64,000 nucleotides of DNA from an uncultured delta proteobacterium (GTDB taxonomy: Bacteria; Desulfobacterota; Syntrophia; Syntrophales; UBA2185), in NCBI GenBank assembly GCA_963729715.1, contig CAVSPA010000018.1, forward strand, positions 16,191 through 80,190, given 5' to 3'. This document shows, piece after piece, positions 86-59,157 of this stretch. The translations under genes and the position numbers were made by a program. The notes beneath the pieces were generated by a model. The model was not told where the DNA came from, did not search any database, and saw only the letters and a list, made by a program, of their open reading frames with translations. The first letter of the stretch is position 1. Every line of letters starts with the position of its first letter.

Positions 86-214
86 CAGGATGGGATCCAT
101 ACGTTGTATGGGGCAGATGGGAAAATACCGACTGTTCCAGAACCGTCATCTTTTCTACTCATTGGTCTTGGTTTAGCAGGATTGGCAGGTGTGAGGAGAA
201 AGTTTAAAAAATAG
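86..214 (+). pseudogene. PEP-CTERM sorting-signal tail with no intact upstream reading frame (remnant or frameshifted 3' end of an exported-protein gene)
   Basis: The frame ending at TAG 212-214 reads ..KIPTVPEPSSFLLIGLGLAGLAGVRRKFKK*. That is a VPEP motif, a hydrophobic helix and a basic tail. The same frame is closed by TGA at 83-85 with no ATG in between, and the other plus-strand frames are also closed. Confidence 0.4.
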
Positions 215-1338: not shown

Positions 1339-2013
1339 TCACTTTTTCGGTCCGAAGATTTCCAATGAAATGATTCTCCCGTTCTCCCAACCAACCCTGT
1401 AGACTTGGATGATATCGGCTGGTATTTCGCTAGATGTTGAGCTCGTAATACCCTCGACGGTGTAATAAATTTTGTTGTCGACCTTCTCTGTCTTGATAAC
1501 ATAAGGATCTCTAACTATCAAAAGACCCATGGCCTTGCGTATAATATCCGAGTTTGCGTATTTGCTGATGACTGCCCTGTATCTTTTCTGCGATGTATGA
1601 GCCTGCATGCATTCCTTCATTTCAGGAATAATATCGGCGACAGCAATCCCCTTTTTTGCACCCAGGGGAGTGAAGGATACAATCCTTCTATTTTCCCAGC
1701 ACACCTTATATGTCTGGACGATATCACGCGGAATTTCAGATGCTGTTTCCACCGTGACACCCTCTACAGTGTAACAGATTTTCTGCCCTTCTCGATCCGC
1801 ATTCGTGATATAGGGCTCCTTGATGATCAGAAGTCCCATGGCCTGATTGACAATGGCTGGGTCGGCATATTTCTGTATAACGGACTTGTACTCTTTCTGC
1901 GATCCGTGGGAACGCATGCACTCCCTCATCTCGGGGATAACCTCCATCGCGAAGGCATGACCCCACATTCCAAAGAAAAGATACATTATGAAGCAAATCG
2001 TAGTTCTCTTCAT
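1339..2013 (-). CDS. Exported protein built from two tandem ~95-aa repeats, unknown function
   Basis: Signal peptide MKRTTICFIMYLFFGMWGHAFA with GGAGGTG upstream. Repeat 1 reads IPEMRECMRSHGSQKEYKSVIQKYADPAIVNQAMGLLI..; repeat 2 reads IPEMKECMQAHTSQKRYRAVISKYANSDIIRKAMGLLI.. Confidence 0.7.
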   Translation of the reverse strand: MKRTTICFIMYLFFGMWGHAFAMEVIPEMRECMRSHGSQKEYKSVIQKYADPAIVNQAMGLLIIKEPYITNADREGQKICYTVEGVTVETASEIPRDIVQTYKVCWENRRIVSFTPLGAKKGIAVADIIPEMKECMQAHTSQKRYRAVISKYANSDIIRKAMGLLIVRDPYVIKTEKVDNKIYYTVEGITSSTSSEIPADIIQVYRVGWENGRIISLEIFGPKK

Positions 2014-2056
2014 CTTCGTCCACCTCCACTTAATTCCGTTCATCCAAAATCTTCAC

Positions 2057-2611
2057 TCAGCGACTTTTATCTTCCTCATTGAGTTTCTTCAAATAATCCA
2101 AGATTTCCTCATAGTTTGGCGAGCCATCCTTGGCGTAACGTACGACACCTTTTTTGTCGATGATCACCGTGCGCCGGTTGAAGACGAAGAGCGATCCCGG
2201 GGGTATCACGCCAAAAAAATCACCGAGATAACCGGAAATATTAGAGAGTATCGGAAAGGTCAGTTTCAGGGATTTGGCCCAGTATTTTAGAGTGACAACA
2301 TCATCGCGGCTGACGCCCGTGACCCGGGCGTTGAGGGACTCATAGAGGGGAAAGTGCCTCTGATGACCCATCATTTCACCCGATCAGATCGGTGTGAAAG
2401 CCGCAGGGAAAAATGTCATAATCAGATAATACCTCCCATAGTAATCCTGATTGTAGCCGACCAGCCGATCCTCTGTAGAAGACAGGTAAAAGTTTAGTGT
2501 CTGCTTGTCTAGGAGGCTTTCCACCTTGAAAGCGGCTTGGGCATTAGACAGAGTCAGAATACTGCAGACGAGGGTTGCAAGAACAAGAATTGTTTTAGTC
2601 TGCTTTTTCAT
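2057..2611 (-). CDS. Exported AhpC/TSA (BCP/peroxiredoxin-like) protein with an in-frame UGA (Sec candidate) at the peroxidatic Cys position
   Basis: ORFs 2384-2659 and 2057-2374 share one frame and are separated only by TGA 2384-2386. The joined product reads ..MTFFPAAFTPI-U-SGEMMGH.. GAGGAG lies upstream of the ATG at 2611, and the signal peptide ends ..SNAQA. Confidence 0.75.
2354..2386 (-). other. UGA codon plus SECIS-like hairpin
   Basis: RNA reads UGA UCGGGUGAAA UGAUG-GGU-CAUCA, with flanking GUG..CAC. The stem starts 11 nt after the UGA and the apical loop is GGU. Confidence 0.55.
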
Positions 2612-2787
2612 AAAAATCTCCTCATTGAAAAGAAACAATGATGCCGTTCCCTGCATCATTAGAATCGCGGGATGATGGAAATGTTTTCAGGAAAAGCCGG
2701 GGACTCCTGATTCAGAAAATTTACGAGGTCGATGCCTTCACCCGACCACACTTAACCCGGAATCGCTCATCCCGAAAATCTCCCCGC

Positions 2788-3099
2788 TCATTTCACGGGT
2801 GTCGGACGCCCACGAACGTGGAAGCCCCCCTCTATCAGGGCCTTTAAGATGCTGTCGACGTTAGTCACCTTGTCGTCAAAACTTACGACAAAGACCTCTT
2901 TCCGGGCGTCATAATCGGTGCCTGTCACTCCGTCGACATTTTCCAGGATAACACCTACCCTGGTTTTCTGCACTCAGGTCTTGCAATCGGCAATTTTGAT
3001 CTCCACCTTGCTCTCGGCGCCATGTGCGGGTTGAGAAACAGTAAAAGCGATCAGTAAAATCAGTAAAAGGGGGGAAACAAAGACCGGTTTTAATCTCAT
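2788..3099 (-). CDS. Exported HMA-fold (MerP/CopZ-like) metal-binding protein with a C-x-x-U motif (Sec candidate)
   Basis: From the ATG at 3099 there are 41 codons: signal peptide MRLKPVFVSPLLLILLIAFTVSQPAHG, then AESKVEIKIADCKT. TGA 2974-2976 follows in frame, then VQKTRVGVILENVDGVTGTDYDARKEVFVVSFDDKVTNVDSILKALIEGGFHV. This matches the GMxCxxC..V..L....GV layout of HMA domains. Confidence 0.7.
2943..2976 (-). other. UGA codon plus SECIS-like hairpin
   Basis: RNA reads UGA GUGCAGAAAA CCAGG-GUAGGUGUUAU-CCUGG. The stem starts 11 nt after the UGA and the loop contains GGU. Confidence 0.5.
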
Positions 3100-3125
3100 G
3101 ACTTAATCCGTCGGGCCGATCCCTT

Positions 3126-3689
3126 TCAAGCCCAGTCATCCAAATCAATATCCGGGCAAAGCCCCATCATGTTGTCGACCCATTCCTCGTTGTCCTTGAT
3201 CCACTGCCTGGCATCGGCCCGTGAAATCATGTTCTCCTTGACCAGGTTCATGGCGGACTCAAGTTTGCCTCCGCATAAGCAGAATTGCTTGACGAGTGTC
3301 GTAAGCGCTGGTCTCTTCTTCTGCAGACCGCTACGAGCTATGGTATGAATCGTTTTCTTTTCGTCTATCCAGTTTGGACCGAGGTCTTCGACCTTCTTGG
3401 CATATTTGGTGTAGTAAGCTTTCTGTTCCGGTAATGTCGCGCTTAATGTGGCGTCGTACTTCCCCTCAACTATGCCTTTCCACATGTCATCAACGGTGGT
3501 CTTAACAAGATTGACCTTTATGCCTAACTTGTCCTCGAGGATGTACTTCAGCATGTATGATTTTGCAATGGAATCCTTTGTATCGATATAAGCCACGGTG
3601 ACCTGCGGTGCCGCCGCAATTGCGGCGGAGACCGTCATGACAATCATGAACGCGGCAACTATGCTTATCTTCAATAGATAACGCCTCAT
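3126..3689 (-). CDS. Glycine-betaine/quaternary-amine binding (OpuAC-like) periplasmic protein; no cognate permease or ATPase nearby
   Basis: Signal/anchor MRRYLLKISIVAAFMIVMTVSAAIAAA. The body resembles substrate-binding domains of betaine ABC systems (..VTVAYIDTKDSIAKSYMLKYILEDKLG..). The family call is from memory. Confidence 0.6.
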   Translation of the reverse strand: MRRYLLKISIVAAFMIVMTVSAAIAAAPQVTVAYIDTKDSIAKSYMLKYILEDKLGIKVNLVKTTVDDMWKGIVEGKYDATLSATLPEQKAYYTKYAKKVEDLGPNWIDEKKTIHTIARSGLQKKRPALTTLVKQFCLCGGKLESAMNLVKENMISRADARQWIKDNEEWVDNMMGLCPDIDLDDWA

Positions 3690-3761
3690 AATAACCTCCT
3701 TTCCAAAATATTTTTCTTTCGGTTGAGAAATCCAACCGGACATCCCACCTAGGAAGTAAAT

Positions 3762-6464: not shown

Positions 6465-6788
6465 TCAGTTACCTTTTGTCTCCTCCCGTGAGAAGATCTC
6501 CCTGGCAATATCCATTTTACTTTTTTCCTTGACATCAATTCCTCTTTTAAGAGCCTCTTCCATAAGTAACTCACCGGATTCCGAAAGCAGGGGATAGCAG
6601 GTCTCAAAGGAATTGAAATAGTTGTATTCACTTTCTTCTCGAAAATCAGTGCGCGTGCCATCAGCTATTAAGTCGGCGATCTCTCTGATCAGATCTTTCG
6701 TCAAAAAGTTCCTTCTCCTTTTATCGAATGTTATCAACTTTTCCCCTTCTTTAATCTTTGGTGGAGATAGACCGTGCCATACTATCAA
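6465..6788 (-). CDS. Hypothetical protein (start uncertain, TTG)
   Basis: The ORF overlaps the upstream stop by 4 nt. It has no recognisable motifs. Confidence 0.35.
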   Translation of the reverse strand: MIVWHGLSPPKIKEGEKLITFDKRRRNFLTKDLIREIADLIADGTRTDFREESEYNYFNSFETCYPLLSESGELLMEEALKRGIDVKEKSKMDIAREIFSREETKGN

Positions 6789-7114
6789 TCCACTATATCT
6801 CCACGGTTCAATTTACGCATAATGTATCGATGAAAAACCGCGTCAACACCGCCAATGACGTTATCAATGAACCGGACGTTATATTTTCTCATCAACTCCT
6901 GGCAATCATCCTGGGTGCCCCCGCATATGACTACCTCAACACGCATGCGGCTGAGGAGGGCGGTTTGATCCTCCAGTTGTAAGTCCCCTATGGGAATAAC
7001 CCCCCTCTCTTCAATAGTCCCGATGTTATTGACGGTGAACACGACTATTTCAGAAGAGTGATCATATCTGGGTGCGACTCTTCCCTTTATCTGGCAAATG
7101 GCAATTTTCCTCAT
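6785..7114 (-). CDS. NifX/NifB-type (dinitrogenase FeMo-cofactor biosynthesis domain) protein
   Basis: MRKIAICQIKGRVAPRYDHSSEIVVF.. and ..VEVVICGG..NVRFIDNV resemble the NifX-like domain. It is related to ORF 26867-27241. Confidence 0.55.
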   Translation of the reverse strand: MRKIAICQIKGRVAPRYDHSSEIVVFTVNNIGTIEERGVIPIGDLQLEDQTALLSRMRVEVVICGGTQDDCQELMRKYNVRFIDNVIGGVDAVFHRYIMRKLNRGDIVD

Positions 7115-7126
7115 GGTTCAGGATTT

Positions 7127-7142
7127 TGCACAGTATATGCCA
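7127..7142 (-). promoter_or_regulatory. Sigma-54 (-24/-12) promoter candidate
   Basis: The minus strand reads TGGCATATACTGTGCA, with GG and GC at the consensus spacing of TGGCAC-N5-TTGC. Caveat: the -12 GC lies only ~14 nt from the ATG at 7114. Confidence 0.4.
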
Positions 7143-7332: not shown

Positions 7333-8694
7333 TCAGTTGCTTTGTTTTGAAAAGAGGTTATGCTTTTTCATCTTCCGCCAGAGAGTTGTTCTGTTCATTT
7401 GGAGTGCTCTGGAGGTTTCGCCCCGTCTCCACCCATGTGCTTTGAGCGCCACGAGGAGCTTCTCTTTTTCATTGAAGGAGGCCCCTTGCTTGGAGACAAT
7501 ATCCACATTGGATGATGAAAACAGCGGGGATGAATTATTTTTCTCAAAAAGATAGAGTGGGAGAAGGTCTTTATCCATTTTTCCGCCTCGGTAAAGGATC
7601 ATGGCGTGTTCAATGATGTTTTTGAGTTCCCGGACATTGCCGGGGTAGGGGTAATTAAGAAGAAGTACCATGAAATCGGATGTAACAATCTTAATTTCCT
7701 TTCCAAGAAGTCTCGCCTGCTCTGCCAAAAAATGATCCACAAGCAGAGGGATGTCCGTAGATCTTTCCCTCAGAGGCGGGATTTCGACCTCGACCACCCT
7801 CAGACGATAATATAAGTCCTGCCGGAAGATCTTTTCCCGGGTCATGTCGGGAAGCTTGCGATTTGTGGAGGTGATGACCCTCACGTCGACAATAACAGGA
7901 CGGGTAGACCCAAGGGGATAGAATTCTTTTTCATCCAGGACCTGTAGAAGCTTGGCTTGGAGGTCGTTGGGAAGCTCACCAATTTCGTCGAGGAAGATGG
8001 TTCCCCCTTCAGCCGTCTGGAATCTTCCAAGCTTATCATGCTTCGCATCGGTAAAGGCACCTTTTTTGTATCCGAAAAGTTCTGATTCGAGTAGTTGCGA
8101 TGGAAGAGCAGCACAGTTGACTTTGATAAAAGGACCATCTCGGCGATGACTGGCATTGTGAACGGCCTTGGCAAAGATGTCTTTGCCGGTCCCCGTTTCA
8201 CCGAGAAGAAGAACAGGGGCATCCGTCGGGGCGACTGTGTTCAGGAGATCGAAGATTCTTAGGATCTTTTCGTCCTTGCCGATGATATCTCCGAAAGAGT
8301 GCAACCCCCGAATCTCCTTTTCTAGGGTGACACGGATCGAGTCATCTTGAAAAGACTCGACACCGCCGATGATCCGCCCCTGATCATCCTGAAGAATCGC
8401 AACAGTGATATCAACGGGGATCTCTTTGTTGTGCCTGTTCAAAATCCTATTCCGGACCTTGACAATCTTGGAGCCGGTCTCCATAGCCATCCTGAGATAG
8501 CACCCCCTCTGGCAGAGTTCGGTCCGGAAGATCTCATAACATTTACGGCCCAAAGCCTCTTTCTTCGAAAAGCCGGTGATCTTCTCCGCTTCTTCGTTGA
8601 AGCAGTTGATATTCCAGCCCATGTCCACGGTGAATATTCCCAAGGCCACACTATTCAGTATTTTCCTGCTATCGAATTCTCTTTTCATAAACAC
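7333..8694 (-). CDS. Sigma-54-dependent transcriptional activator (PAS sensor + AAA+ + C-terminal HTH)
   Basis: Walker A GETGTGKD, the GAFTDA loop (KKGAFTDA) and an ESELFGY-type motif (ESELFGYKKG). The C-terminus reads ..RALQMNRTTLWRKMKKH. Confidence 0.9.
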   Translation of the reverse strand: MFMKREFDSRKILNSVALGIFTVDMGWNINCFNEEAEKITGFSKKEALGRKCYEIFRTELCQRGCYLRMAMETGSKIVKVRNRILNRHNKEIPVDITVAILQDDQGRIIGGVESFQDDSIRVTLEKEIRGLHSFGDIIGKDEKILRIFDLLNTVAPTDAPVLLLGETGTGKDIFAKAVHNASHRRDGPFIKVNCAALPSQLLESELFGYKKGAFTDAKHDKLGRFQTAEGGTIFLDEIGELPNDLQAKLLQVLDEKEFYPLGSTRPVIVDVRVITSTNRKLPDMTREKIFRQDLYYRLRVVEVEIPPLRERSTDIPLLVDHFLAEQARLLGKEIKIVTSDFMVLLLNYPYPGNVRELKNIIEHAMILYRGGKMDKDLLPLYLFEKNNSSPLFSSSNVDIVSKQGASFNEKEKLLVALKAHGWRRGETSRALQMNRTTLWRKMKKHNLFSKQSN

Positions 8695-8816
8695 GTAAAC
8701 TTGCCGAAACCCAAAGTATAATAACAGTCAAGCCATCTAAAGTCAAACGGATACCCCGGGGTTCTGCGTTCTTGACTTAACCCGTGAGTTGTGACACAGA
8801 AAAACCGGGAGGTAGA

Positions 8817-10727
8817 ATGACCTTGGCGACCTTGCGTGACCTTCAGCCGTCGGGCATCGTAAATTATCCTGGAATCGGTTTCCCAAATTTCATCGAAAAC
8901 ATTTTAATCAGGATTTCCTTCGAGCCTGTAATCAAGGAAAACATCGGGTGGATCGGTACAGCGTACCGCACGGGCCGCAAGAGAAGCTGGACATTCCGGA
9001 TCCGGGGTTTCAAAGGGATCTACTGCCTGACTTTTCAGGGTTTCGAGGAGGAAGCAGCGGGTTGGCATCATGGCGTCTTTGAGCTTCAGTATTTCCCGAA
9101 GTCCGATGAGGCCATTCTGGATACTTTTTCCGTCCGGGAAAATCTTCTGCGCCTGGATCCGTTTTTTGATAAATTGGTCCGGCGTGCTCCGGAAGAGGAA
9201 GATCCTCTGGTGTCACAATTCATGGTGGGGAACATAATCTTGACCTGCGATGCCGGCGAGAAAAACCTCTTTCTTTCTCTCTGGGCACCGGTCAGATGGC
9301 GTGAGATCCGGCGGGCAGGCCTCTACATGAACGCACATGACGGGTCGCCGGTGGAGGCCGTTCCTCCGGGGGGCACTGACAGAAATGTTCCCTCTTTCGC
9401 CCTTGCTTGGCCATTCTTCGACAGACTCGTTTTGACCCTTGCCTGCCAAATGAGGCGACCTCCCCTTTGTGTAATACTGAAGCGCAGAAACTGGCCCGTT
9501 TGGATCATAGCCGGAGGCAATGATTGCGTGCCGTCTGAGGAAAATTTTACACTACAGAATTTTCTTTCCGTTGGATTCGGTCCGTGGTCCAAGAATAAGA
9601 CCGAAGATCCACGTGTCAAATGGGCAATGGACTTTTTCCCGGCGGATACCGGTTTCTCCGCATCGTCTAAAACAAGAGTCGTTTGGTCCGTGACACCTTG
9701 GAATCCTTTACCTAAAAGGGGGAATTCACTATGGTGGAAAGCACCCTTCTGGAAGGAAAAGGGCAGAATGAGAGGATTTCAAACCTTGGGGATTCATTAT
9801 AGACCCCCGCTTCTGGTGATCACGGGATTCTTGGGGAGCGGCAAGACGACACTGCTCAACCAGATCGTCGAGTATAAAGCCCTTTCGTCTTACAAGTTCA
9901 TAGCCGTTATCCAGAATGAGGTGGGTGATGTCGATGTAGACAGCAAGCTTATGGACAGCGCTTATTGCATCACGTCCTTGGATGAAGGTTGCGTCTGCTG
10001 CACCCTGCTTGGAGAGTTCCGTCAGGCAGTCCGGAAGATCTGCATCGAATATGAACCGGACTTAATCATTATCGAGACCACAGGTGTGGCCGATCCCCAC
10101 AGCATCCTTGCCGCGATCCCTGACCTCGAACCATTTGTCCGCTTTGATACTGTTGTATGTGTTGTGGACGGTCCGAATCTTGAATATATCTTGAAAGACT
10201 ATCCTGTTGCACGATCTCAAATTGAATATGCCAGCTTGATCCTCCTCAATAAGAAGGATCTTATGGATGCAGAAACCCTGGCAAAAGCGGAGAGGATCAT
10301 CTGTGCAATCAATCCTCATGCAACTATTCTTCATACGATCTATGCCCGTGTGAATCCAGGCCTTTTTTTCGCCATTGAGGAAAATATTGGTTTGCCAATG
10401 ATGAAGAGAGATCGGATATCACTTGAAGCAACAGATTTGGACGCCCAGCAGGTTCGTGCTTTTACACTCATATTACCCGGGGACCTGAAGGAACCTTGTT
10501 TCATGCAGTTTCTGGATGATCTTCCCGATTCGGTATACCGCCTGAAAGGCGTCATTAAAATAAAGGGCCGGGAGCAACCGCAGCTGCTTCAATACGTGGT
10601 CCACCGCTATGAAATCTCCAACTTTTTGGAAAAGAACATGGAGCCCAACACTCTCGTCTTTATCGGCCGGAATCTCGACGAAAATGCCTTGAGGAAAGAT
10701 TTCCTGAGATGTCTTGCTGAAGAGTGA
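8817..10727 (+). CDS. COG0523 (CobW/YjiA-type) G3E GTPase with an unrecognised N-terminal domain of about 325 aa
   Basis: GGGAGG lies 5 nt before the ATG at 8817. The C-terminal half has GFLGSGKTTLLN, the CxCC motif (EGCVCCTL) and ETTGVADP. The N-terminal half has no motif I recognise. Confidence 0.8.
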   Translation: MTLATLRDLQPSGIVNYPGIGFPNFIENILIRISFEPVIKENIGWIGTAYRTGRKRSWTFRIRGFKGIYCLTFQGFEEEAAGWHHGVFELQYFPKSDEAILDTFSVRENLLRLDPFFDKLVRRAPEEEDPLVSQFMVGNIILTCDAGEKNLFLSLWAPVRWREIRRAGLYMNAHDGSPVEAVPPGGTDRNVPSFALAWPFFDRLVLTLACQMRRPPLCVILKRRNWPVWIIAGGNDCVPSEENFTLQNFLSVGFGPWSKNKTEDPRVKWAMDFFPADTGFSASSKTRVVWSVTPWNPLPKRGNSLWWKAPFWKEKGRMRGFQTLGIHYRPPLLVITGFLGSGKTTLLNQIVEYKALSSYKFIAVIQNEVGDVDVDSKLMDSAYCITSLDEGCVCCTLLGEFRQAVRKICIEYEPDLIIIETTGVADPHSILAAIPDLEPFVRFDTVVCVVDGPNLEYILKDYPVARSQIEYASLILLNKKDLMDAETLAKAERIICAINPHATILHTIYARVNPGLFFAIEENIGLPMMKRDRISLEATDLDAQQVRAFTLILPGDLKEPCFMQFLDDLPDSVYRLKGVIKIKGREQPQLLQYVVHRYEISNFLEKNMEPNTLVFIGRNLDENALRKDFLRCLAEE

Positions 10728-26421: not shown

Positions 26422-26866
26422 TTTGTTGTCCTCCTTAAATAAATTATTTTTTGTACCTTTCATAAAATTCATAACCAATTGTAATTACCGTTTTATTTGG
26501 CATACCATTTTTCCCCATAGAAATGGCCTTTTATCTGCCCAATAACAGGCTCTAAAAAGTTCGCAAAGTAAGTCTGCGTCTGCCTCTGGTGGCATCCTAA
26601 ATTCCTCAACGGTTCAGCATGCATCATTGGTCACCGTCACAAAATCCGATTCGTTAAAACCCTCTTCCAAATCTCTAATTTTGTGAAGCCCTATAATCAT
26701 AATCTGTCCCTTGTGCTCTATGCCAATAACAAGTATTTCAAAAATAGGCTCTTGTCGATGAAGACAATTCTTAATTACAGTAAATGTCATATTTCTGGAG
26801 TCACTTGGCAGAACCGGGGATTTAGAAGCCTTTTATGCAGACATATTGGCAAATATGTATTTCCTA

Positions 26867-27833: not shown

Positions 27834-27950
27834 GTAAGGTATGCCGTGTAAAACGTATGACTAGTCGGTTAAAGTCCGACGGTGGGAGTTCTGTAGTTCG
27901 CCCACGTAGCTGGAGGGAAGTGTTAAGGGTAACCTGAAGCATTAAGTTCC
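27834..27950 (+). repeat. Copy 3 of the ~115-nt conserved structured element (continuous with the intron-like RNA below)
   Basis: GTAAGGTATGCCGTGTAAAACGTATGACTAGTCGGTTAAAGTCCGACGGTGGGAGTTCTGTAGTTCGCCCACGTAGCTGGAGGGAAGTG..AACCTGAAGC. Confidence 0.75.
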
Positions 27951-28520
27951 CTGACAAAGGTTCCTATAGGGAGTCGAGCAAACCTGCGGGTCGCAGCGTG
28001 AGCGAACCTAGATGTAGCCTCAAAAATCACAATGGAGTTGTCGACCCTCTCCTACACAGGGGAAGACCGGAGCATCTATCCTGACGAAAACCACCAGAAC
28101 CGATAGATGGACTTCCGTGGTAACAGGGGTGACACGCAGGGGCAGCCAGACGAGAATGAACGCGGGAGACCCTTGTCGATGCTGCGAGAGCGGCAACTGG
28201 TGGATATAAGGAAACGAAGTTTCACTGGGTCGGCACGGGAGTCGGAGTTGCCCATAGTACCGCTTGTATCTCAAGGACAGCATAACCTTGAGAGAGGAAA
28301 GGGGCAATACCTTCATCATGCTTCTAAAGGAGAGAAGGAAAGGAGATTGCGGTAACGCTATCAACTCCAAAGATTCCAGGAACTCCGGTGGAAGCTATAC
28401 TGGAAGGCCAAGTGAAAGCGAAAGCCTCTGGAAGAAGATGATTGGAAAGCCGTGTGCGGGAAAACTGCATGCACGGTTGTGTGTCCAGCGAAGGCTGGTC
28501 TGTTCAGTAGGAGTCAAACC
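27846..28520 (+). ncRNA. ORF-less group II intron-like ribozyme (5' end tentatively at GTGTA; 3' end not determined)
   Basis: Domain-I-like 5' region, many perfect local helices (for example CATCTATC..GATAGATG) and a canonical domain V at 28448-28478. No RT/maturase ORF lies anywhere in 27815-29205. Confidence 0.5.
28448..28478 (+). ncRNA. Group II intron domain V hairpin
   Basis: AGCCGUGU-GCGG-GAAAA-CUGC-AU-GCACGGUU. It has the AGC triad at the base, an 8-bp lower helix, a 2-nt bulge on the 3' strand, a 4-bp upper helix and a GAAA-type loop. By eye it closely matches the yeast ai5gamma D5, GAGCCGUAUGCGAUGAAAGUCGCACGUACGGUUC. Confidence 0.7.
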
Positions 28521-29205
28521 TGCCAGGGTAAAAGCCAGAGCCCTGTAGCTTGGATAGCAGGGTGGAGGAAAACCAAAATCTTGGAGCCTATTGACACACC
28601 CATCAAAAGGAAGGGAGCGAGTTACCAGGCCGTAACGAGAGTGAACGCAGAGGTGGCCCCGAAAGTTCGAAGCCTCGGAAGCAGAGCTGGAGCTCACTAT
28701 CAGTGGAACCACGCTTATTTGGAGGTTTCGTTTTACATGGGCCTCACCTGAGGTACAAATGCCTCGCCCGATCGCGACATGGAAGGAATTTGACCCTTCG
28801 CAAATCATAGGACGCGAAGCTACCAGTAGAACATCCGGACATAGCAAATTTACTATCAGCGAAGACGGCAGCAGCATAACCGAGAATGGTGCAGACGGCA
28901 CTTTCACGTACTACCGTCAGTAAAGGCAAGGGTTTCGGAGTCTGTGCTTGGGGCCGAACTTTGCGTTGGTTTGAAATGGCAATGCCCTGTGTTCAGCCCC
29001 ATGGCTGACACAATAGTTGTGGGTGCCACTATTAACGGATCTCTTTCATATTTTGATTCATCTTTCTCACGCAGTACGGGTTGAAACACGCGAAGGCTCG
29101 AAAGCTTATTTTCAGTTCGCATAAAATCCGGCTGCCTTCCTTGTTTGACATGCCTATCAGGACATTGTAGAGTTTAAGTCATAATACTTCCATGGAGGTG
29201 CCACG

Positions 29206-42508: not shown

Positions 42509-43876
42509 GGGTCTTCTGGGTTTGTTGTGCATAAATTTAATTCTATTTCGGTTCTTTGATAAAGGAAGTTATAACTTTGAGCATCAGGTATTCCTGATCC
42601 TTAATGCCGTATGCTCTGCGCTGGATGACGCGGATCTTGTTATTCAAGCCTTCCATGAATCCAAGTGAAACCTTGTGATCAGGATGGCAGTAACTGATGA
42701 TTCCGTCCCAGTGACGCTCAATGAGAGCAGCAAACTTCTCAAAGGGTTTAAGCCGCTGCCAGCGCAACTGGTCTTTCCAGCTTTCAAAGAACTTTCGTGC
42801 CCATGTTGGGTTGTTATAATCCCAGAGTTGCCCGAACGATTCTTTCAACAGATAGGCTTTATGAAGCCGTTTGTTTGCTTTTAACAGCATTTGCAAGGCC
42901 CGTCGGCCTTCAATATCTAAATTGGCTTTATGGGACAGCAACGTATAGCGCTGCCCCTTGATGAACCGACGTTCTTTCTCATTGACACGTTTGTACTCGC
43001 TGCGTCTGACCTGATCAAGGGCGTCTGCCAGATGACGCGTGATGTGAAACTTGTCATAGACAATCTGTGCGTTGGGAGCATGACTCAGCGTTGCTTTACG
43101 AAATGGCTTCCACATATCCATGACCGCCAGTTCGATTGTCTTGCAGCGCTCAGGCCCCATGGTGTCGAAGAACAACTGTAAATCCTGTTCGGTGCGACCC
43201 TGTCCACCCAGCCAGATCGGTCGTCTCTGGTCAAGATCGGCGACAACGATGGCATAGGTGTGGCCCTTACGGGTCGATATTTCATCGATGCCAATGGTCC
43301 GAAGCTGTGCGGAAGGCGGATGCTGCTCCAGCAGGCGACGCATGTAACCCTTCTCCATGCGACATACCTGGTCCCAGCTCAGGTTGTTAAGCTCTGCAAC
43401 ACGTTTGATGCTCATCTCGCGACAGAGCAGTCCAATGCGGTCTTCGAACCGCTGAGTGAACCGGGACGACTTGGCCAGCATTGAAAGAGTCTCGCGTTTC
43501 ACGGCTTTGCAATGCGGGCAGGCAACCCTGCGATACTCGAAGTCAAGATAGATGCGGGTTGCTCCGGCATCCAGGTCTCGCACCCTATGAGTTCGCCGGT
43601 CCCGATAGCTTGATGCCGTTGTACCGCAGCCGGAACAGACTGTTTTTTTTGGCGGCGCTCCAGGGTAACAATGCATCCTTCAGGATCTTCCGGGTGTGGC
43701 TTCAGCGTGGCACGGGCACGGAATCCAGGAAATTTATACAGGTCTCGGAGTGTATTTTTCGTTTTCATCTAACTACTCTATCCGAGATTAGAAAACGTGT
43801 CAATTTTCAAAGAACATTTATAAAAGCGTTACAGGTACTTATGCCTGTTTCTTTGTACAAAAAAGTCAGATGATCC
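42509..43876 (-). mobile_element. ISL3-family insertion sequence (1368 bp) with an 8-bp target-site duplication
   Basis: AATAAAAA occurs at 42501-42508 and at 43877-43884. The ends GGGTCTTCTGGGTTTGTTGTGCATAA and GGATCATCTGACTTTTTTGTACAAAG are imperfect inverted repeats, with about 18 of 26 positions matching by eye. Confidence 0.85.
42543..43768 (-). CDS. ISL3-family transposase, in two frames that join at an A8 tract
   Basis: The N-terminal frame reads MKTKNTLRDLYKFPGFRARATL..IVTLERRQKK. It shifts by -1 at the A8 tract (43643-43650) into ..TVCSGCGTT..RVRDL..RRVACPHCK.., the remainder of the transposase. Confidence 0.8.
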
Positions 43877-53891: not shown

Positions 53892-55841
53892 ATGACCAAG
53901 AAAATAATAAAACCTAAGGATCGCGTCTGGGATAAGGCGTCGTTGGAAACCCTGATCAAGGCGGAGCGGGACTGCATAGACACCTGCTTCACCCGCCTGG
54001 ATGCGCAGCAGAGTCCCTGCCGGTTTGGAACCGAAGGCCTCTGCTGCCGGATCTGCTATATGGGCCCCTGCCGGATTACAAGCAAGGCTCCACGCGGAGT
54101 CTGCGGAGCAGATGCCGACACGATTGTGGCCCGCAATTTTCTCCGTGAGGTCGCAGGCGGCACGGCTGCCCACTCTGATCACGGCCGCCATCTTGTCCTC
54201 CTCTTGAAACATGCGGCGGAAGGCCAAATAGCTGATTATGTAATCAGGGATGAAAAAGCGCTCCGACGTATAGCGAAAAGCTATGGCATAGAGGAAACGG
54301 AACGCACAAAAGAGGCGGTTGCCCTCGATCTTGCCGACTTGTTTTTGAAGGAATTCATGCTTCAGGAAGATACTCTTTCGACGCTGCGTCTTTCCCCGGT
54401 CAGGCAGCAGGCCATCTGGCGCGGCCAGTCCGTAGCGCCGCTCGGCATCGACCGGATGGTCGTCGAATCTCTCCACCGCACGCACATGGGCGTAGACCAC
54501 GATTACCGGAACATCCTTCTCCAGGCCTTTCGCACGTCCCTCGCCGACGGCTGGGGCGGATCGCGCATCGCCACGCAGATTTCCGATATCCTCTTCGGCA
54601 CACCCTCGCCGGTGCGGAGCGACGCTAACCTCGGCGTGCTCGGGAAAGATACGGTCAATATAGTCGTACATGGCCATGAGCCGGACCTGCCGGAGATGCT
54701 CGCTATCGCTGCACGTGATCCCGCCACGCAGGCTTATGCGCGAGAGGCCGGCGCCACCGGGATTACGCTCGCCGGCATTTGCTGCACGGCAAATGAAATA
54801 CTCATGCGGCACGGCATCCCCGTGGCGGGAAGCTTCCTCCAGCAGGAACTCGCCCTTGTGACGGGCGCTGTTGAAATGATGCTTGTCGATGTGCAATGCT
54901 GCATGCCGAGCCTTCCGGATGTCGCCCGGAGTTACCATACGGAAATCGTCTCCACGGCGGATATCGCCAAGACCGTCGGGACGACACATATCACGCTCAA
55001 CCGGGACAACCCGCTCGCCACGGCAAGGGTCCTGATCCGCCGCGCCGTCGACAATTTCAAGAACCGCGATCCTGAGAAAGTTTCCATCCCGGACATCAAA
55101 ACGCCGCTCGTCGCGGGTTTCAGCGTGGACGCTATTAAGTATATGTTGGGCGGCCGCTTCCGTGCGTCCTTCCGTCCGCTCAACGACGCAGTTATCCAGG
55201 GAAGGATCAGGGGCATCGTCGGCATTGTCGGCTGCAATAATCCGCGGACGCGCGTGGATGCCTACATCAACACCATGACGCGAGCGCTGATCGGGCAAAA
55301 CGTACTCGTCCTCAAGACCGGCTGCGCGGCCATTGCTTCCGCAAAAGAAGGGATGCTCAGGCCGGAGGCGGCGCTCGAAGCAGCGGGCGCGGGGCTCCGC
55401 GAGGTCTGCGAGGCAATCGGAATGCCGCCTGTCCTTCACATGGGAAGCTGCGTGGACAACTCCCGCATCCTCGAGGCGGGCACGGAAGTAGTTCTCGAGG
55501 GCGGCCTGGGCGACGACCTCTCGCAAATCCCCGCTGTGGGCGTGGCCCCCGAATGGATGAGCGAAAAAGCAGTGGCCATCGCCTGCTATTTTGTGGCTTC
55601 GGGCATTGACGTTGTCCTGGGACATCCCTTCCATGTAGGCGGTTCAGATAATGTGACACGCTTCCTCAATGAGGAAACACGGGAACTTTTTAACGCCTCC
55701 TTCCACGTCTGCGAAGACCCCCTCCGGGCCGTGGACATGGTGATCGATCTTCTCGATAAAAAGCGCGAGCGCCTCGGAATTAACCGCAAGGCCGAGCGGA
55801 AGCTCTACGACATGGAGGACCGGAGGAAGCTCGATGTCTAA
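53892..55841 (+). CDS. acsA: Ni-dependent carbon monoxide dehydrogenase catalytic subunit (AcsA/CooS)
   Basis: The N-terminal Cys clusters ..CRFGTEGLCCRICYMGPCRI.., ..HGHEP.. and full-length similarity. Confidence 0.9.
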   Translation: MTKKIIKPKDRVWDKASLETLIKAERDCIDTCFTRLDAQQSPCRFGTEGLCCRICYMGPCRITSKAPRGVCGADADTIVARNFLREVAGGTAAHSDHGRHLVLLLKHAAEGQIADYVIRDEKALRRIAKSYGIEETERTKEAVALDLADLFLKEFMLQEDTLSTLRLSPVRQQAIWRGQSVAPLGIDRMVVESLHRTHMGVDHDYRNILLQAFRTSLADGWGGSRIATQISDILFGTPSPVRSDANLGVLGKDTVNIVVHGHEPDLPEMLAIAARDPATQAYAREAGATGITLAGICCTANEILMRHGIPVAGSFLQQELALVTGAVEMMLVDVQCCMPSLPDVARSYHTEIVSTADIAKTVGTTHITLNRDNPLATARVLIRRAVDNFKNRDPEKVSIPDIKTPLVAGFSVDAIKYMLGGRFRASFRPLNDAVIQGRIRGIVGIVGCNNPRTRVDAYINTMTRALIGQNVLVLKTGCAAIASAKEGMLRPEAALEAAGAGLREVCEAIGMPPVLHMGSCVDNSRILEAGTEVVLEGGLGDDLSQIPAVGVAPEWMSEKAVAIACYFVASGIDVVLGHPFHVGGSDNVTRFLNEETRELFNASFHVCEDPLRAVDMVIDLLDKKRERLGINRKAERKLYDMEDRRKLDV

Positions 55842-58800
55842 GATCATCTGCGCAAGCGCCATTGACGGGGCCAGAGACTGGATCGCCAAAGCGGAAGACC
55901 GCCTGAATCATGCTATCAGCAAACGAGGCGAGACGTGGCCCGCTGCCTTTCCCGGTACTGCCTACTTCCTGCCTGTTATCTATTCCTTCACCGGTGAGCC
56001 TGTCCGCACACTCGGAGACCTGCGGCCGATCCTTCGCCAGGCCAAGCAACTCCTGCCGCTCCGCCCTGCCGATGCAGTATGGCTTCCCTACTTGGGGAGC
56101 GCCCTCGATGCAGGTATGGCGTCCCTCTTCGCCTGTGAAATAATCGAGGCGTGCAAGTATGCCGTCGGACCCGATCCTGTGGATGGGATCTGGTTGAGTG
56201 CGGCCAATGACGTCATCCTGCGGGAACGAGGCATCGAATTCGTGGACGGCACGGCCCCCGGCTTCGCCGCGATCACCGGCGCGGCGCCGACAAATAAAAT
56301 CGCAGTCACTATCGCGCGGCAGCTCCAGGAAAAAAACCTCTATGTCTTCATGGCGGGCGGCACCGACGGTAGGCAATTTGCCGAACAGTTGGCCGAAGAA
56401 GGCGTGCAGTTGGGATGGCCGACGCGCCTGATTCCGTTTGGTCCCGATGTCTCCGCCCTGATCTATGCTTTGGGATTCGCCAACCGCGTAGCCCTTTCCT
56501 TCGGCGGCGTACAGCCCGGCGACTACGAACGGAATCTTAAGTACAACAAGACTCGCATCTTTGCCTTCGTCCTTGCCCTGGGCGAGGTAACGCCCGACAA
56601 GTACGCCATAGCCGCAGGCGCAATCAACTACGGCTTTCCCATCATCGCCGATACGGACATCCCCGAGATTCTGCCGACGGGCGTCTGCACTTACGAGCAT
56701 GTCGTCTCCTCCGTGCCCTACGACACAATGGTGGAGAGGGCCCTCGAGGTGCGGGGCTGCAAGATCAAGGTCACCAAAGTGCCCATCCCCGTGCCCTACG
56801 GGCCGGCCTTCGAGGGTGAACTGATACGCAGGGCCGATGCCCACGTGGAGTTCGGTGGAAATTTGACCACCGCCTTTGAATTCGTCACCAGCGTGGATAT
56901 GGATCAGATCAACGACGGCGAGATAGAAATCATTGGTCCCCATATAGATGAGGTCGAGCCCGGCAGCACACTGCCGCTTGCCATCTGGGCGGAGGTTGCG
57001 GGCCGGAAGATGCAGTCTGATTTTGAACCTATCCTCGAAAGGCAGATCCATCACCTTGTCAACGGTGCCGAGGGGATCTGGCATATGGGTCAACGGGATA
57101 TTGTCTGGACGCGCGTTTCGAAGAGCGGCTTTGCACGTGGACTGGGGCTTCGCCACTACGGAGAGATCATCCACGCAAAGTTCATCTCCGACTACCCGGC
57201 CATTGTCGACAAGGTGAAGGTGACAATCATTACGGATGCGGCGGAGGTGGAACGGCGTCTCGCAGTCGCACGAAGAATCTATGACGAGCGAAACCGCCGC
57301 CTCGAGGCCATGACGGATGAAGCCGTGGATACCTTTTATTCCTGTCTCCTCTGCCAGTCCTTCGCCCCCAATCATGTCTGCATCATCACGCCGGAGCGGC
57401 TCGGGCTCTGCGGCGCCTACAATTGGCTGGATGGCAAGGCGGCCTACGAGATCAACGAGACCGGCCCGAACCAGCCCGTAAAAAAAGGCGAAGCCATCGA
57501 TCCTGTGAAAGGCATTTTTCGGGGCATCAACGAATACGTCTATCTAAGCAGCCACAAGAGCGTGCCGGAGTTCTGCTGCTATTCCCTCATGGACAGGCCC
57601 ATGACGAGCTGCGGCTGTTTCGAGGCGATCCTTGCCTATCTTCCCGAATGCAACGGCGTCATGGTCGTCAACCGGGAATATCAGGGCGAAACGCCTGTGG
57701 GGCTGACCTTCTCGAGCCTCGCCGGCAATGTGGGCGGCGGACAGCAGACCCCAGGCTTTATGGGCGTGGGCAAGGTCTTCCTGACCTCGAAGAAATTCCT
57801 CGCTGCGGAAGGCGGATTTAAACGCATCGTCTGGATGCCGAAGGCCCTTAAGGAACTCCTCGCTCCCGATCTCTCAAAACGCTTCGCCGAACAGGGAGCT
57901 CCGGATCTTTTAGAAAAAATTGCCGATGAGGAAGTGGGTGTCGATGCGCATGCAATCCGCGCGTTCATGGAAAACGTGCAACATCCCGCACTTTCGATGG
58001 ACGATATGGCCATCTATGCACTGCTGACCCCAACACCGACGCCGATAGAGCGTCCTCCATCCGAGGCGCATCCCGTTGAGGTACAGGAAGCCCCGCCATC
58101 ACCTGTGGAGACGAAGGAAGAGAGAGTTGCACCCGCCGAGGAAACGATCATTGGGCCTGCCGCAATCGGCCTCCTCGAAGCAGTCACCGCTTTTCCGGTC
58201 CGCCGGCAAACCTGCGATGTCCCCATCTGGCAGGTCACGCTCGGTGCTACAAAGAAAACAGGAGGAACCCGCGGCCATACCCTGAAAGTCGGCGGCGCAA
58301 ACTGCATGCCCTTCCATTTCTGGGAAGGTGCAATGCCGAGCCGTCCCCTTGTGGCCATGGAAGTCTTTGATGTGATCTCGGAGAAGTATCCCTCCGTCCT
58401 GAGAAACATCTATGGCGATCTCTTGATCCGGCCGGCGGAGATGGCACGTCTCTGCGTGGAAAAATACGGCGCAGATCTCATCAGCGTCCGTCTCGACGGA
58501 ACGCATCCCGAGAAGGGAAATCGCACTCCCGAGGAAGCCGTGAAGCTCGTCAAAGAGGTACTGGTCACGGTCGACGTGCCCCTGATCGTCACGGGCCACA
58601 GCCATTACGAGAAGAACAACGAAGTCCTGAAGTCCGTAGCCCAGGCCTGCGCCGGGGAGAACCTGCTCTTCAACTGGGTGGAGCAGGACAACTACCGCAC
58701 CATCGCCGGGGCGGCCATCGCCTACGGCCACTGCATTGTCGCTCAGAGCCCTATCGATGTGAACATCGGCAAGCAGTTGAACATCCTCCTCATAAATATG

Positions 58801-59157
58801 GATATCAAGCCGGAGCGGATTATCATGGACCCAATGACGGGCGCAACCGGCTATGGAATCGAATACACGTATTCAGTCATGGAGCGCATACGCCTGACGG
58901 GACTGGAAGGAGACCGCATGCTTGCGGCGCCGATGATAGTCTCACCCGGACAGGAGTGCGCGAGGGTCAAGGAGTACCGGGCTGCCGAGGCAAATTTCCC
59001 GGCATGGGGCAATCTCAAGAGACGCACAGCCCTCTGGGAACTCTCCACGGCGCTGAGCCTTCTTTACGCAGGCGCCGACCTCCTGATCATGTATCATCCC
59101 GACGCAGCGATGGCGCTGAAGAAGACGATCCTTGAATTGATGCAGAAGGAAGTATAA
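55834..59157 (+). CDS. acsB: Acetyl-CoA synthase (AcsB) fused through a Pro-rich linker to the corrinoid Fe-S protein small subunit (AcsD)
   Basis: Residues 1 to ~730 are AcsB-like, including ..CLLCQSFAPNHVCIITPERLGLCGA.. and ..MTSCGCFE.. The linker TPTPTPIERPPSEAHPVEVQEAPPSPVETKEE lies at about 58027-58145. The C-terminal ~330 aa are an AcsD/CdhD-like TIM barrel (..LISVRLDGTHPEKGN.. and ..IIMDPMTGATGYGIEY..). Confidence 0.8.
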   Translation: MSKIICASAIDGARDWIAKAEDRLNHAISKRGETWPAAFPGTAYFLPVIYSFTGEPVRTLGDLRPILRQAKQLLPLRPADAVWLPYLGSALDAGMASLFACEIIEACKYAVGPDPVDGIWLSAANDVILRERGIEFVDGTAPGFAAITGAAPTNKIAVTIARQLQEKNLYVFMAGGTDGRQFAEQLAEEGVQLGWPTRLIPFGPDVSALIYALGFANRVALSFGGVQPGDYERNLKYNKTRIFAFVLALGEVTPDKYAIAAGAINYGFPIIADTDIPEILPTGVCTYEHVVSSVPYDTMVERALEVRGCKIKVTKVPIPVPYGPAFEGELIRRADAHVEFGGNLTTAFEFVTSVDMDQINDGEIEIIGPHIDEVEPGSTLPLAIWAEVAGRKMQSDFEPILERQIHHLVNGAEGIWHMGQRDIVWTRVSKSGFARGLGLRHYGEIIHAKFISDYPAIVDKVKVTIITDAAEVERRLAVARRIYDERNRRLEAMTDEAVDTFYSCLLCQSFAPNHVCIITPERLGLCGAYNWLDGKAAYEINETGPNQPVKKGEAIDPVKGIFRGINEYVYLSSHKSVPEFCCYSLMDRPMTSCGCFEAILAYLPECNGVMVVNREYQGETPVGLTFSSLAGNVGGGQQTPGFMGVGKVFLTSKKFLAAEGGFKRIVWMPKALKELLAPDLSKRFAEQGAPDLLEKIADEEVGVDAHAIRAFMENVQHPALSMDDMAIYALLTPTPTPIERPPSEAHPVEVQEAPPSPVETKEERVAPAEETIIGPAAIGLLEAVTAFPVRRQTCDVPIWQVTLGATKKTGGTRGHTLKVGGANCMPFHFWEGAMPSRPLVAMEVFDVISEKYPSVLRNIYGDLLIRPAEMARLCVEKYGADLISVRLDGTHPEKGNRTPEEAVKLVKEVLVTVDVPLIVTGHSHYEKNNEVLKSVAQACAGENLLFNWVEQDNYRTIAGAAIAYGHCIVAQSPIDVNIGKQLNILLINMDIKPERIIMDPMTGATGYGIEYTYSVMERIRLTGLEGDRMLAAPMIVSPGQECARVKEYRAAEANFPAWGNLKRRTALWELSTALSLLYAGADLLIMYHPDAAMALKKTILELMQKEV

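Follow-up and report, generated by a model that had tools for sequence, protein, structure and literature searches.

The closest described systems to the protein reported here are small metal-binding proteins of the HMA (heavy-metal-associated) superfamily. MerP (TIGR02052; PDB entries 1osd and 1afi) is a small stand-alone HMA domain exported behind a Sec-type signal peptide, and it places two soft ligands, one in the beta1-alpha1 loop and one in the first turn of helix alpha1, within a G-M-T-C-x-x-C motif. The same ferredoxin-like fold and ligand placement are found in the CopZ and Atx1 chaperones and in the N-terminal HMA domains of P1B-ATPases (PF00403; 6ff2, 1p6t, 1cpz), which are cytosolic and have no signal peptide. 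Selenocysteine (Sec, U) in the metal motif of an HMA-like domain has also been recorded, in NF041115 (UxxU), in the MerT/CopZ fusion NF045683 and in the UxxC P-type ATPases (PMC13188914). Here we describe a gene on the minus strand of a 64,000-nucleotide stretch of an uncultured Syntrophales bacterium (contig CAVSPA010000018.1; the whole stretch is called the window below) in which an in-frame UGA stands at the second ligand position of such a site. The account that we favor, and consider likely as a whole, is that the gene encodes an exported HMA-fold selenoprotein with a CKTU motif, recoded through a selenocysteine insertion sequence (SECIS) and acting as a periplasmic metal carrier or scavenger.

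The likeness of this protein to MerP extends to its size, export and stand-alone architecture and to the positions of its two ligands, and MerP was its best NCBIfam match, its best single-domain match in a PDB profile search and its best Foldseek match. It differs from MerP in scoring below the family cut-off, in reading A-D-C-K-T-U with Sec as the second ligand, in having no mer genes (merR, merT or merA) among its neighbors, and in a characteristic C-terminal tail, G-x-P-x-(Y/F)-L-K, found in most family members. From CopZ, Atx1 and the ATPase domains it is set apart by its signal peptide and by Sec in place of the second Cys; some family members are labeled 'copper chaperone CopZ' by JGI. 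Since cut-offs, motif and operon context all fall outside those of the MerP and CopZ equivalogs, membership in either is denied, and the protein is related to MerP but is neither a true MerP nor a true CopZ. Compared with NF041115, NF045683 and the UxxC ATPases, the motif here is CxxU with one Sec, in an exported stand-alone domain with no MerT or ATPase part. A first-pass annotation of the locus, made from the sequence alone, had called a periplasmic thiol/selenol chelator an unusual protein. The exported stand-alone CxxU form does seem to be uncatalogued, but HMA-type selenoproteins as such were already curated. The available text of the 2026 prokaryotic selenoprotein catalogue held no HMA, MerP or PF00403 entry and no corresponding CxxU family. 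An apparent precedent, the Global Ocean Sampling (GOS) selenoprotein named 'Mercuric transport protein MerP' (PMC2398784), was rejected because only the name is shared: it consists of a pair of identical read fragments, 33 residues long and with UC as the motif (HHARTSAPAGTUCQSGVQAVPATDQAHGDVNEC), which bear no resemblance to the Syntrophales HMA selenoprotein family.

Reading frame and conservation of the UGA codon

The gene and its parts are as follows.

2785..3099, minus strand: complete predicted selenoprotein gene, 103 codons plus the terminal stop TGA at 2787..2785 (translation)
3019..3099, minus strand: predicted Sec-type signal peptide, residues 1-27 (read from the sequence)
2788..3018, minus strand: mature HMA-fold domain, residues 28-103 (structure model, Foldseek and subfamily profile)
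2983..2985, minus strand: codon TGC for Cys39, first ligand of the C-x-x-U site (sequence, subfamily alignment and model)
2974..2976, minus strand: in-frame UGA, predicted Sec42, first residue of helix alpha1 (comparison of TGA and Cys orthologues, and model)
2943..2963, minus strand: putative bacterial SECIS core, an 8-bp stem CCAGGGUA/UAUCCUGG (2963..2956 with 2950..2943) with apical loop GGUGU (2955..2951)

From the ATG at 3099 the frame runs for 41 codons (MRLKPVFVSPLLLILLIAFTVSQPAHGAESKVEIKIADCKT) to the TGA at 2976..2974 and then continues for 61 in-frame codons (...ADCKT-TGA-VQKTRVG... around the codon), so that the two open reading frames (ORFs) of the first-pass annotation, and their coordinates, were correct and lie on the minus strand. 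The predicted precursor has 103 residues, MRLKPVFVSPLLLILLIAFTVSQPAHGAESKVEIKIADCKT-U-VQKTRVGVILENVDGVTGTDYDARKEVFVVSFDDKVTNVDSILKALIEGGFHVRGRPTPVK. Its N-terminus has the parts of a signal peptide (positive n-region MRLK, hydrophobic core, c-region ...QPAHG) with a predicted cut before AESK and no lipobox; with this cleavage site marked by a slash, the product reads MRLKPVFVSPLLLILLIAFTVSQPAHG/AESKVEIKIADCKT-U-VQKTRVGVILENVDGVTGTDYDARKEVFVVSFDDKVTNVDSILKALIEGGFHVRGRPTPVK. The alignment to the NCBIfam MerP model begins within that model's own signal-peptide region (profile positions 7-86), the structure model has a lone N-terminal helix at residues 8-21, predicted with low confidence, and the N-terminal architecture is common to all family members. 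The protein is thus predicted to be exported.

Orthologues were collected at 29 loci, all from Syntrophales, which reduce to 12 distinct protein variants (the close set) spanning approximately 47-100% protein identity (63-93% nucleotide identity) and include the metagenome-assembled genomes (MAGs) L014-L016 as well as JGI metagenomes. A further three Syntrophales MAGs, together with 13 contigs, came from scans of species-representative genomes and JGI metagenomes. Ten of the 12 variants have TGA at the codon and two have Cys (TGT in the P0001/L001 group and TGC in L018). Both the Sec and the Cys forms that the first-pass annotation had suggested looking for therefore exist, and its placement of the UGA where an HMA metal loop has its second Cys was borne out, as Cys orthologues read CKTC and residue 42 opens helix alpha1. 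In a word-indexed search of 5.8 billion proteins the only full-length homologue was P0001, a 93% identical protein from a Syntrophales MAG with CKTC encoded via TGT. The top matches in an exhaustive HMMER search were proteins of 54-61 residues aligning solely downstream of the TGA, the pattern left when gene callers cut orthologues in two. On the orthologue contigs the TGA stands at the identical codon (ADCKT-TGA-TQKTRVG in L005; PGCKT-TGA-AQKARVG in L006-L010). Orthologues ending at this site, named beforehand as an observation that would speak against a single protein, were not what was found: they have either a TGA followed by conserved coding sequence or a Cys codon.

The subfamily as a whole is small, with 45 clusters at E<=1e-6 among the 5.8 billion proteins, all derived from metagenomes or MAGs. 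Database names for them are 'mercuric ion binding protein', 'copper chaperone CopZ' or 'hypothetical protein', and none is labeled a selenoprotein. Three distant relatives (approximately 30% identity) have TGA at the site, namely L011 (PGCAA-TGA), L012 (DGCLT-TGA) and L032 (PGCV-TGA, a CxU variant). Databases list these as 'CxxW', and their DNA showed that the W is a TGA called under genetic code 4; distant clades with CxxC also exist (e.g., PGCRPCGA). Code-4 gene calls of this kind, on short metagenome contigs (ENA ERZ272...), display Sec as Trp; beyond the three cases checked in DNA, we infer the same for the 'CxxW' entries P0006, P0010, P0014, P0017, P0028, P0034, P0065, P0066, P0069, P0075 and P0088. 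Such calls are a general trap in searches for Sec/Cys pairs.

Nei-Gojobori counts gave ratios of nonsynonymous to synonymous differences (pN/pS) of 0.14-0.47 over the 61 codons downstream of the TGA in nine comparisons, and of 0.16-0.63 upstream. Coding sequence before and after the TGA is under purifying selection, which argues that the two halves are translated in one frame. Together with the conserved TGA and the Cys orthologues, this supports the earlier proposal of one exported protein read through the UGA as Sec. In a neighbor-joining tree the two deep clades are all-TGA, and the two Cys forms and the window gene make up a shallow trio of approximately 93% identity. With the Cys forms nested in this way, Sec is ancestral in the clade and Cys recent. 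Because the two Cys codons differ, as do the accompanying changes in the hairpin described below, Cys probably arose twice, so that the close set would hold at least two recent Sec-to-Cys events.

A candidate SECIS element and the decoding of the UGA

A hairpin soon after the UGA had been noted in the first-pass annotation as 5 bp closing an 11-nt loop. Its presence and position stand, but the stem has 8 bp and the loop 5 nt. The hairpin starts 10 nt after the UGA, with 18 nt from UGA to loop. Folded over 40 nt it has a free energy (dG) of -10.9 kcal/mol (z = -2.8 against 200 dinucleotide shuffles, of which two fold as well). The constraints for bacterial SECIS elements given in PMC13188914 are a loop of 3-9 nt, a stem of 4-16 bp, G at the first two loop positions, 16-37 nt from UGA to loop and a minimum free energy of <= -7.5 kcal/mol. 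Judged from these published values, the hairpin agrees with all of them (5 nt, 8 bp, GG, 18 nt, -10.9), as had been expected. It is like the consensus bacterial SECIS in being a stem-loop within the coding region just past the UGA with a GG-initial 5-nt loop on an 8-bp stem, and unlike it in having neither a bulged U in the stem nor an extended lower helix back to the UGA, and in overlapping a protein motif that is itself conserved. Numbered from the U of the UGA, its positions 23 and 24 are G and U and would correspond to the SelB-contacting G23 and U24 of Escherichia coli fdhF. Rfam, searched at gathering threshold over the window and at E<=10 over 2000-3200, returned nothing relevant to the hairpin region.

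All ten close Sec forms keep CCAGGG...CCUGG. In the 12 Sec-form sequences compared, pairing holds in 90.6% of cells, as against at most 54% in slid registers, and compensatory changes on both sides were seen in three of the eight stem pairs. Pair 15/33 is mostly C-G (G-C in L012, U.G in L032), pair 19/29 varies among G.U, G-C and A-U, and pair 21/27, which is A-U in the window and C-G in L006 and L027, is unpaired (A/G) in all the others. In the CxU member L032, hairpin and UGA are displaced by an equal 3 nt. Each close Cys form has turned a different C-G pair of the stem to G.U (GUC in L001; GCU, a synonymous change, in L018), and the hairpins of these two forms are the weakest, with dG of -7.7 and -7.2 kcal/mol compared with -9.3 to -16.8 in the Sec forms.

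A second case of apparent recoding lies next to the gene.

2054..2659, minus strand: exported AhpC/TSA-type peroxiredoxin-like gene, the downstream neighbor (translation; NCBIfam peroxiredoxin models to 7.9e-14)

This gene has an in-frame TGA (2386..2384) at the position of the peroxidatic Cys (FFPAAFTPI-U-SGEMMGH), which is conserved in six variants, including both lineages with Cys in the HMA gene; the protein scores below all NCBIfam peroxiredoxin cut-offs, that for PrxU included. It is independent evidence, drawn from sequence comparison, for a predicted decoding of UGA as Sec in the lineage. Relatives also have a Pyr_redox_2 gene of the NADH-oxidase/CoA-disulfide-reductase (CoADR) type, absent from the window, with a conserved TGA (GDFVSYAA-U-PMPYYIG; L001, 18272..19606, minus strand; L006, 7664..8998, minus strand), called as two products of 43 and 399 aa. 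This split gene had been considered as a MerA-like partner of the HMA protein and was rejected as such, being an NADH-oxidase/CoADR-type selenoprotein (YAA-U-PMPYY). Syntrophus aciditrophicus has been reported to have SelD and 19 selenoproteins (PMC1794560), and the Wood-Ljungdahl and beta-oxidation genes of the window fit a Syntrophales-type anaerobe. As a separate observation, the window holds another TGA-split ORF pair at 26485..26790 on the minus strand (TGA at approximately 26616; ...VTNDAC-U-TVEEFRMPPEAD...), downstream of an HpaB-like gene; no homologue supporting this candidate CxxU gene was found in L001 or L002.

Two other readings of the UGA were weighed. It could be a nonsense mutation, or a sequencing or assembly error, in a Cys codon, leaving a pseudogene or an artefact, and in the two most similar orthologues (approximately 93% identical) the codon is indeed TGT or TGC, which a single substitution would turn into TGA. 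Nevertheless L004 (Logan ERR10755942), a contig assembled separately for the same population, whose single mismatch over 10,036 nt lies elsewhere, also reads TGA, which answers the earlier caveat that a re-reading might yield TGT or TGC. The TGA also recurs across independent samples and MAGs in the ten close variants and in the three distant relatives, purifying selection persists downstream, a hairpin of bacterial SECIS consensus is stronger in the TGA forms than in the close Cys forms, and the tree nests Cys within the Sec clade. We regard a mutation or error as effectively refuted and next to impossible. Alternatively, the UGA could terminate translation, yielding an exported peptide of 41 residues, a separate protein of 61 residues initiated at the GTG that immediately follows the TGA in the window, or both, or the code could be reassigned to Trp or Gly, in line with the several database entries that translate the TGA of this family as W. 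The codon after the TGA in orthologues is, however, GCG, GCA or ACG, none of them a start, and gene callers began 8 codons later; a product of the C-terminal part alone would have no signal peptide, no beta1 and no first ligand. TGA ends 21 of the 57 long ORFs in the window and also the selenoprotein gene itself, so that the genetic code is standard, and the alternative residue in homologues is Cys, not Trp or Gly. Termination and reassignment are effectively excluded, and we consider them extremely improbable. With these set aside, the gene is very probably a genuine selenoprotein gene, with Sec insertion predicted at 2976..2974.

Fold, gene neighborhood and proposed function

The Pfam check suggested in the first-pass annotation came back empty: HMA (PF00403) had no match at E<=1 to the joined translation (U replaced by C) or to either half. 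With Pfam HMA silent, homology was shown through NCBIfam, a family profile and a structure model, and these, with Foldseek, upheld the HMA/MerP-like fold that had been proposed. The best NCBIfam match was MerP (TIGR02052; E 5e-8, 33.3 bits against a cut-off of 92.55), aligned over its full length. The CopZ models NF033794, NF033795 and TIGR00003 gave 25, 17.6 and 22.4 bits (cut-offs 95, 91 and 62), NF041115 gave 15.3 bits (cut-off 95), NF045683 gave 20.7 bits (cut-off 375), and the MerTP model also matched below its cut-off. A profile of the subfamily only, from which canonical GMxCxxC sequences were excluded, matched HMA domains in the PDB over the whole domain (Bacillus subtilis CopA, 6e-19; MerP 1osd, 1.6e-12; CopZ, 3.8e-10). 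The relatives P0006, P0036 and P0054 do carry PF00403.

An AlphaFold (AF2) structure, predicted for a Cys orthologue with a 37-sequence alignment, had a mean model confidence (pLDDT) of 88.9 overall and >94 over the mature domain. Its elements are beta1 (29-34), alpha1 (42-53), beta2 (58-64), beta3 (69-75), alpha2 (81-90) and a C-terminal strand beta4, in the beta-alpha-beta-beta-alpha-beta, ferredoxin-like topology of the HMA superfamily. Cys39, which is nearly invariant in the subfamily alignment, lies in the beta1-alpha1 loop and residue 42 opens alpha1, as in MerP, CopZ and Atx1; the two-soft-ligand placement of the superfamily is thus present with the motif C-x-x-U. The top 50 Foldseek matches in the PDB were all HMA domains, and the best was MerP of Ralstonia metallidurans (1osd; target-normalized TM score 0.83). 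The protein is a divergent member of the HMA superfamily that falls below the Pfam threshold, and its HMA fold can be taken as almost certain.

In both deep clades the selenoprotein gene is last or near-last in a conserved same-strand array, which in the window contains the following genes.

7333..8694, same-strand array: sigma54-type activator (PAS, AAA, HTH_8)
6785..7114, same-strand array: 109-aa NifX/MrpORP-C-like protein
between the preceding and the following gene, same-strand array: ORF of approximately 79 aa
5134..6405, minus strand: 423-aa polytopic membrane protein, syntenic in L001, L004, L005 and L006-L010
4996..5121, minus strand: 41-aa hydrophobic peptide, called and syntenic in L001, L004, L005 and L006-L010
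3762..4934, minus strand: metallo-beta-lactamase (MBL)-fold protein with an HxHxDH motif and a twin-arginine (TAT)-type signal (..RRDFVKG..), of an uncharacterized COG1237-like group (Pfam Lactamase_B 3.1e-6; PDB 2p4z 1.8e-11; synteny)
3126..3743, minus strand: exported single-lobe OpuAC-type binding protein (Pfam OpuAC 4.3e-12; PDB OpuAC 2b4l 9.6e-12)

The 423-aa membrane protein and the 41-aa peptide had no Pfam, NCBIfam or PDB match. The OpuAC-like gene ends 26 nt before the ATG of the selenoprotein gene and is syntenic in every close locus; its relatives are called at 187 aa, which suggests a start at the internal MRRYLL, at approximately 3689. Divergent from the sigma54 activator and adjoining it is a CobW/ZigA-type metallochaperone GTPase (8784..10727, plus strand) with an N-terminal extension of approximately 340 residues that belongs to no known family, and with a weak match to NF041053 (CobW-related selenoprotein; 67 bits, cut-off 180). 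In L001 a Fur-family gene stands beside the CobW/ZigA-like GTPase. A scan for the sigma54 consensus gave 50 matches compared with 57 expected, and a site near the operon head (7142..7128, minus strand; TGGCATATACTGTGC) was not above chance and was not used. Distant family members have no OpuAC-like or MBL neighbors (BLASTP E>0.1) and unrelated surroundings, so that operon inference is limited to the Syntrophales clade.

On a scheme taken from the established bacterial Sec pathway, the ribosome would reach the UGA at 2976..2974, where the hairpin 10 nt downstream would tether SelB with Sec-tRNA(Sec); Sec would be inserted in place of termination and the remaining 61 codons translated. Export by the Sec translocation route and cleavage of the signal peptide, predicted after AHG27, would leave a periplasmic domain of approximately 76 residues presenting a thiolate from the beta1-alpha1 loop and a selenolate from the N-terminus of alpha1. 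A soft metal ion could be held between the sulfur of Cys39 and the selenium of Sec42 and passed to, or taken from, the co-encoded periplasmic and membrane proteins. By analogy, the site would have the low-coordinate geometry with which MerP, CopZ and Atx1 bind soft metals (Hg(II), Cu(I), Cd/Zn), and the protein would function as a MerP or CopZ in which selenium takes the place of one sulfur. A selenolate is a softer ligand than a thiolate and is fully deprotonated at neutral pH, so thiophilic metals should bind tighter or exchange faster. Fold, motif and synteny, from which metal binding and the partner proteins are proposed, suggest that the protein most likely carries or scavenges a metal (or metalloid) in the periplasm on behalf of its conserved module.

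The main live rival accepts the same selenoprotein but takes Cys-x-x-Sec as a redox centre that forms a reversible selenenylsulfide; on this view it might, for example, supply reducing equivalents in the periplasm to the neighboring exported Sec-peroxiredoxin, or act on the MBL-fold partner as a thiol/selenol oxidoreductase. A redox role is what is assumed for the majority of bacterial CxxU and UxxC selenoproteins (PMC13188914), MerP was crystallized with both Cys as a disulfide (title of 1osd), the canonical Met of GMxCxxC is missing here, and in the window clade the exported Sec-peroxiredoxin gene is immediately downstream. Yet the other deep clade (L006-L010, L015 and L016) keeps the selenoprotein gene and the remaining operon genes but has no such neighbor, the motif is CxC or one Cys in part of the family, and all matches by structure or profile were metal-binding HMA domains, with no thioredoxin-fold or other redox protein among them. 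A redox centre therefore seems unlikely to us, and on the narrower choice between the two kinds of role we incline, with some reserve, towards a metal ligand as opposed to a redox one.

Several observations weigh against the account of a SECIS-recoded metal carrier. The silence of Pfam HMA has been described, and all NCBIfam scores were far under the curated cut-offs. The motif is A-D-C-K-T-U or P-G-C-x-x-U, with no Met, and it varies by clade (CxxU, CxU, CxxC, CxC, a single Cys, or none), so that metal binding is not guaranteed family-wide. The covariation of the hairpin is modest, involving three pairs, and 2-16 of 500 shuffles do as well as the real sequences. Among three distant Cys members, one has no hairpin and one a 4-bp remnant, but L033 still has a hairpin of 7 bp. 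The main weakness of the SECIS evidence is the overlap of hairpin and protein motif: the hairpin is encoded by the codons of the helix-alpha1 motif R-V-G-V-I-L (AGG GUA GGU GUU AUC CUG; conserved form R-(V/I)-G-x-I-L), so that coding and RNA constraints are entangled and conservation of the stem is partly that of the protein. In the 64-kb window and the fetched loci, NCBIfam searches found no selA, selB or selD (the 20 candidate-sized ORFs were Wood-Ljungdahl, beta-oxidation, transposase and similar genes), and ARAGORN, searching for tRNA-Sec (selC), found zero tRNAs in the window or in 26 loci; with no sel genes in the window, Sec decoding rests on the comparative evidence. Finally, with partners of no known function and differing neighborhoods in distant members, the physiological role is a guess.

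Other features of the window were recorded in passing. An exported protein of 215-234 aa (1339..2043, minus strand), with no known-family match, is conserved beside the peroxiredoxin-like gene in L001, L004 and L005 and contains an internal duplication in which the motif IPEM[RK]ECM..H.SQK.Y..VI.KYA occurs twice. A 1107-aa ORF (55834..59157, plus strand) joins acetyl-CoA synthase alpha/beta (residues 1-725) and delta (795-1103) in an apparent fusion, within a Wood-Ljungdahl block of FTHFS (49173-50858), CODH (53892-55841), the gamma subunit (59254-60606) and AcsV (60723-62645). Two tandem Rfam matches to group-II-intron D1-D4-4 lie at 27862..28001 and 28505..28640 on the plus strand (84 and 104 bits, above the gathering score), and an ISL3-family transposase lies at 42543..43676 on the minus strand (319 bits, above cut-off). 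A short ORF at 104..214 on the plus strand ends in a PEP-CTERM sorting motif (Pfam E 1e-9) and is probably the C-terminus of a gene starting before the window, or mis-started.

Implications for selenoproteins and syntrophic anaerobes

In the databases and literature searched, the family was not found described as a selenoprotein. It is a new family among HMA-type selenoproteins, with conventional recoding machinery and fold, and since both are conventional we see it as an extension of known biology and not a surprise. A bolder claim, which we put forward tentatively, is that the gene may be the founding example of an uncatalogued exported HMA-fold family combining Cys-x-x-Sec or Cys-x-Sec motifs, a SECIS in the codons of helix alpha1, Sec/Cys switching and a sigma54-controlled soft-metal module. 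Current resources miss the family: its genes are split into ORFs of 41 and 54-61 aa or have the UGA translated as Trp under code 4, and the window protein scores below the cut-off of every Pfam and NCBIfam model; with the description of the family the prokaryotic selenoproteome gains a well-supported family.

If the account holds, the protein motif R-(V/I)-G-x-I-L and the RNA signal would constrain each other, and repeated switching between Sec and Cys would be possible. The approximately 93%-identical Sec and Cys versions, from lineages that both still appear to decode Sec, offer a natural test of what a selenolate contributes at a two-ligand metal site. The work also flags a conserved periplasmic gene module in syntrophic anaerobes, relevant to methanogenic carbon turnover, a setting in which thiophilic metals and sulfide interact. 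In Syntrophales, the selenoprotein may serve this sigma54-controlled module in handling a soft metal or metalloid by selenolate chemistry.

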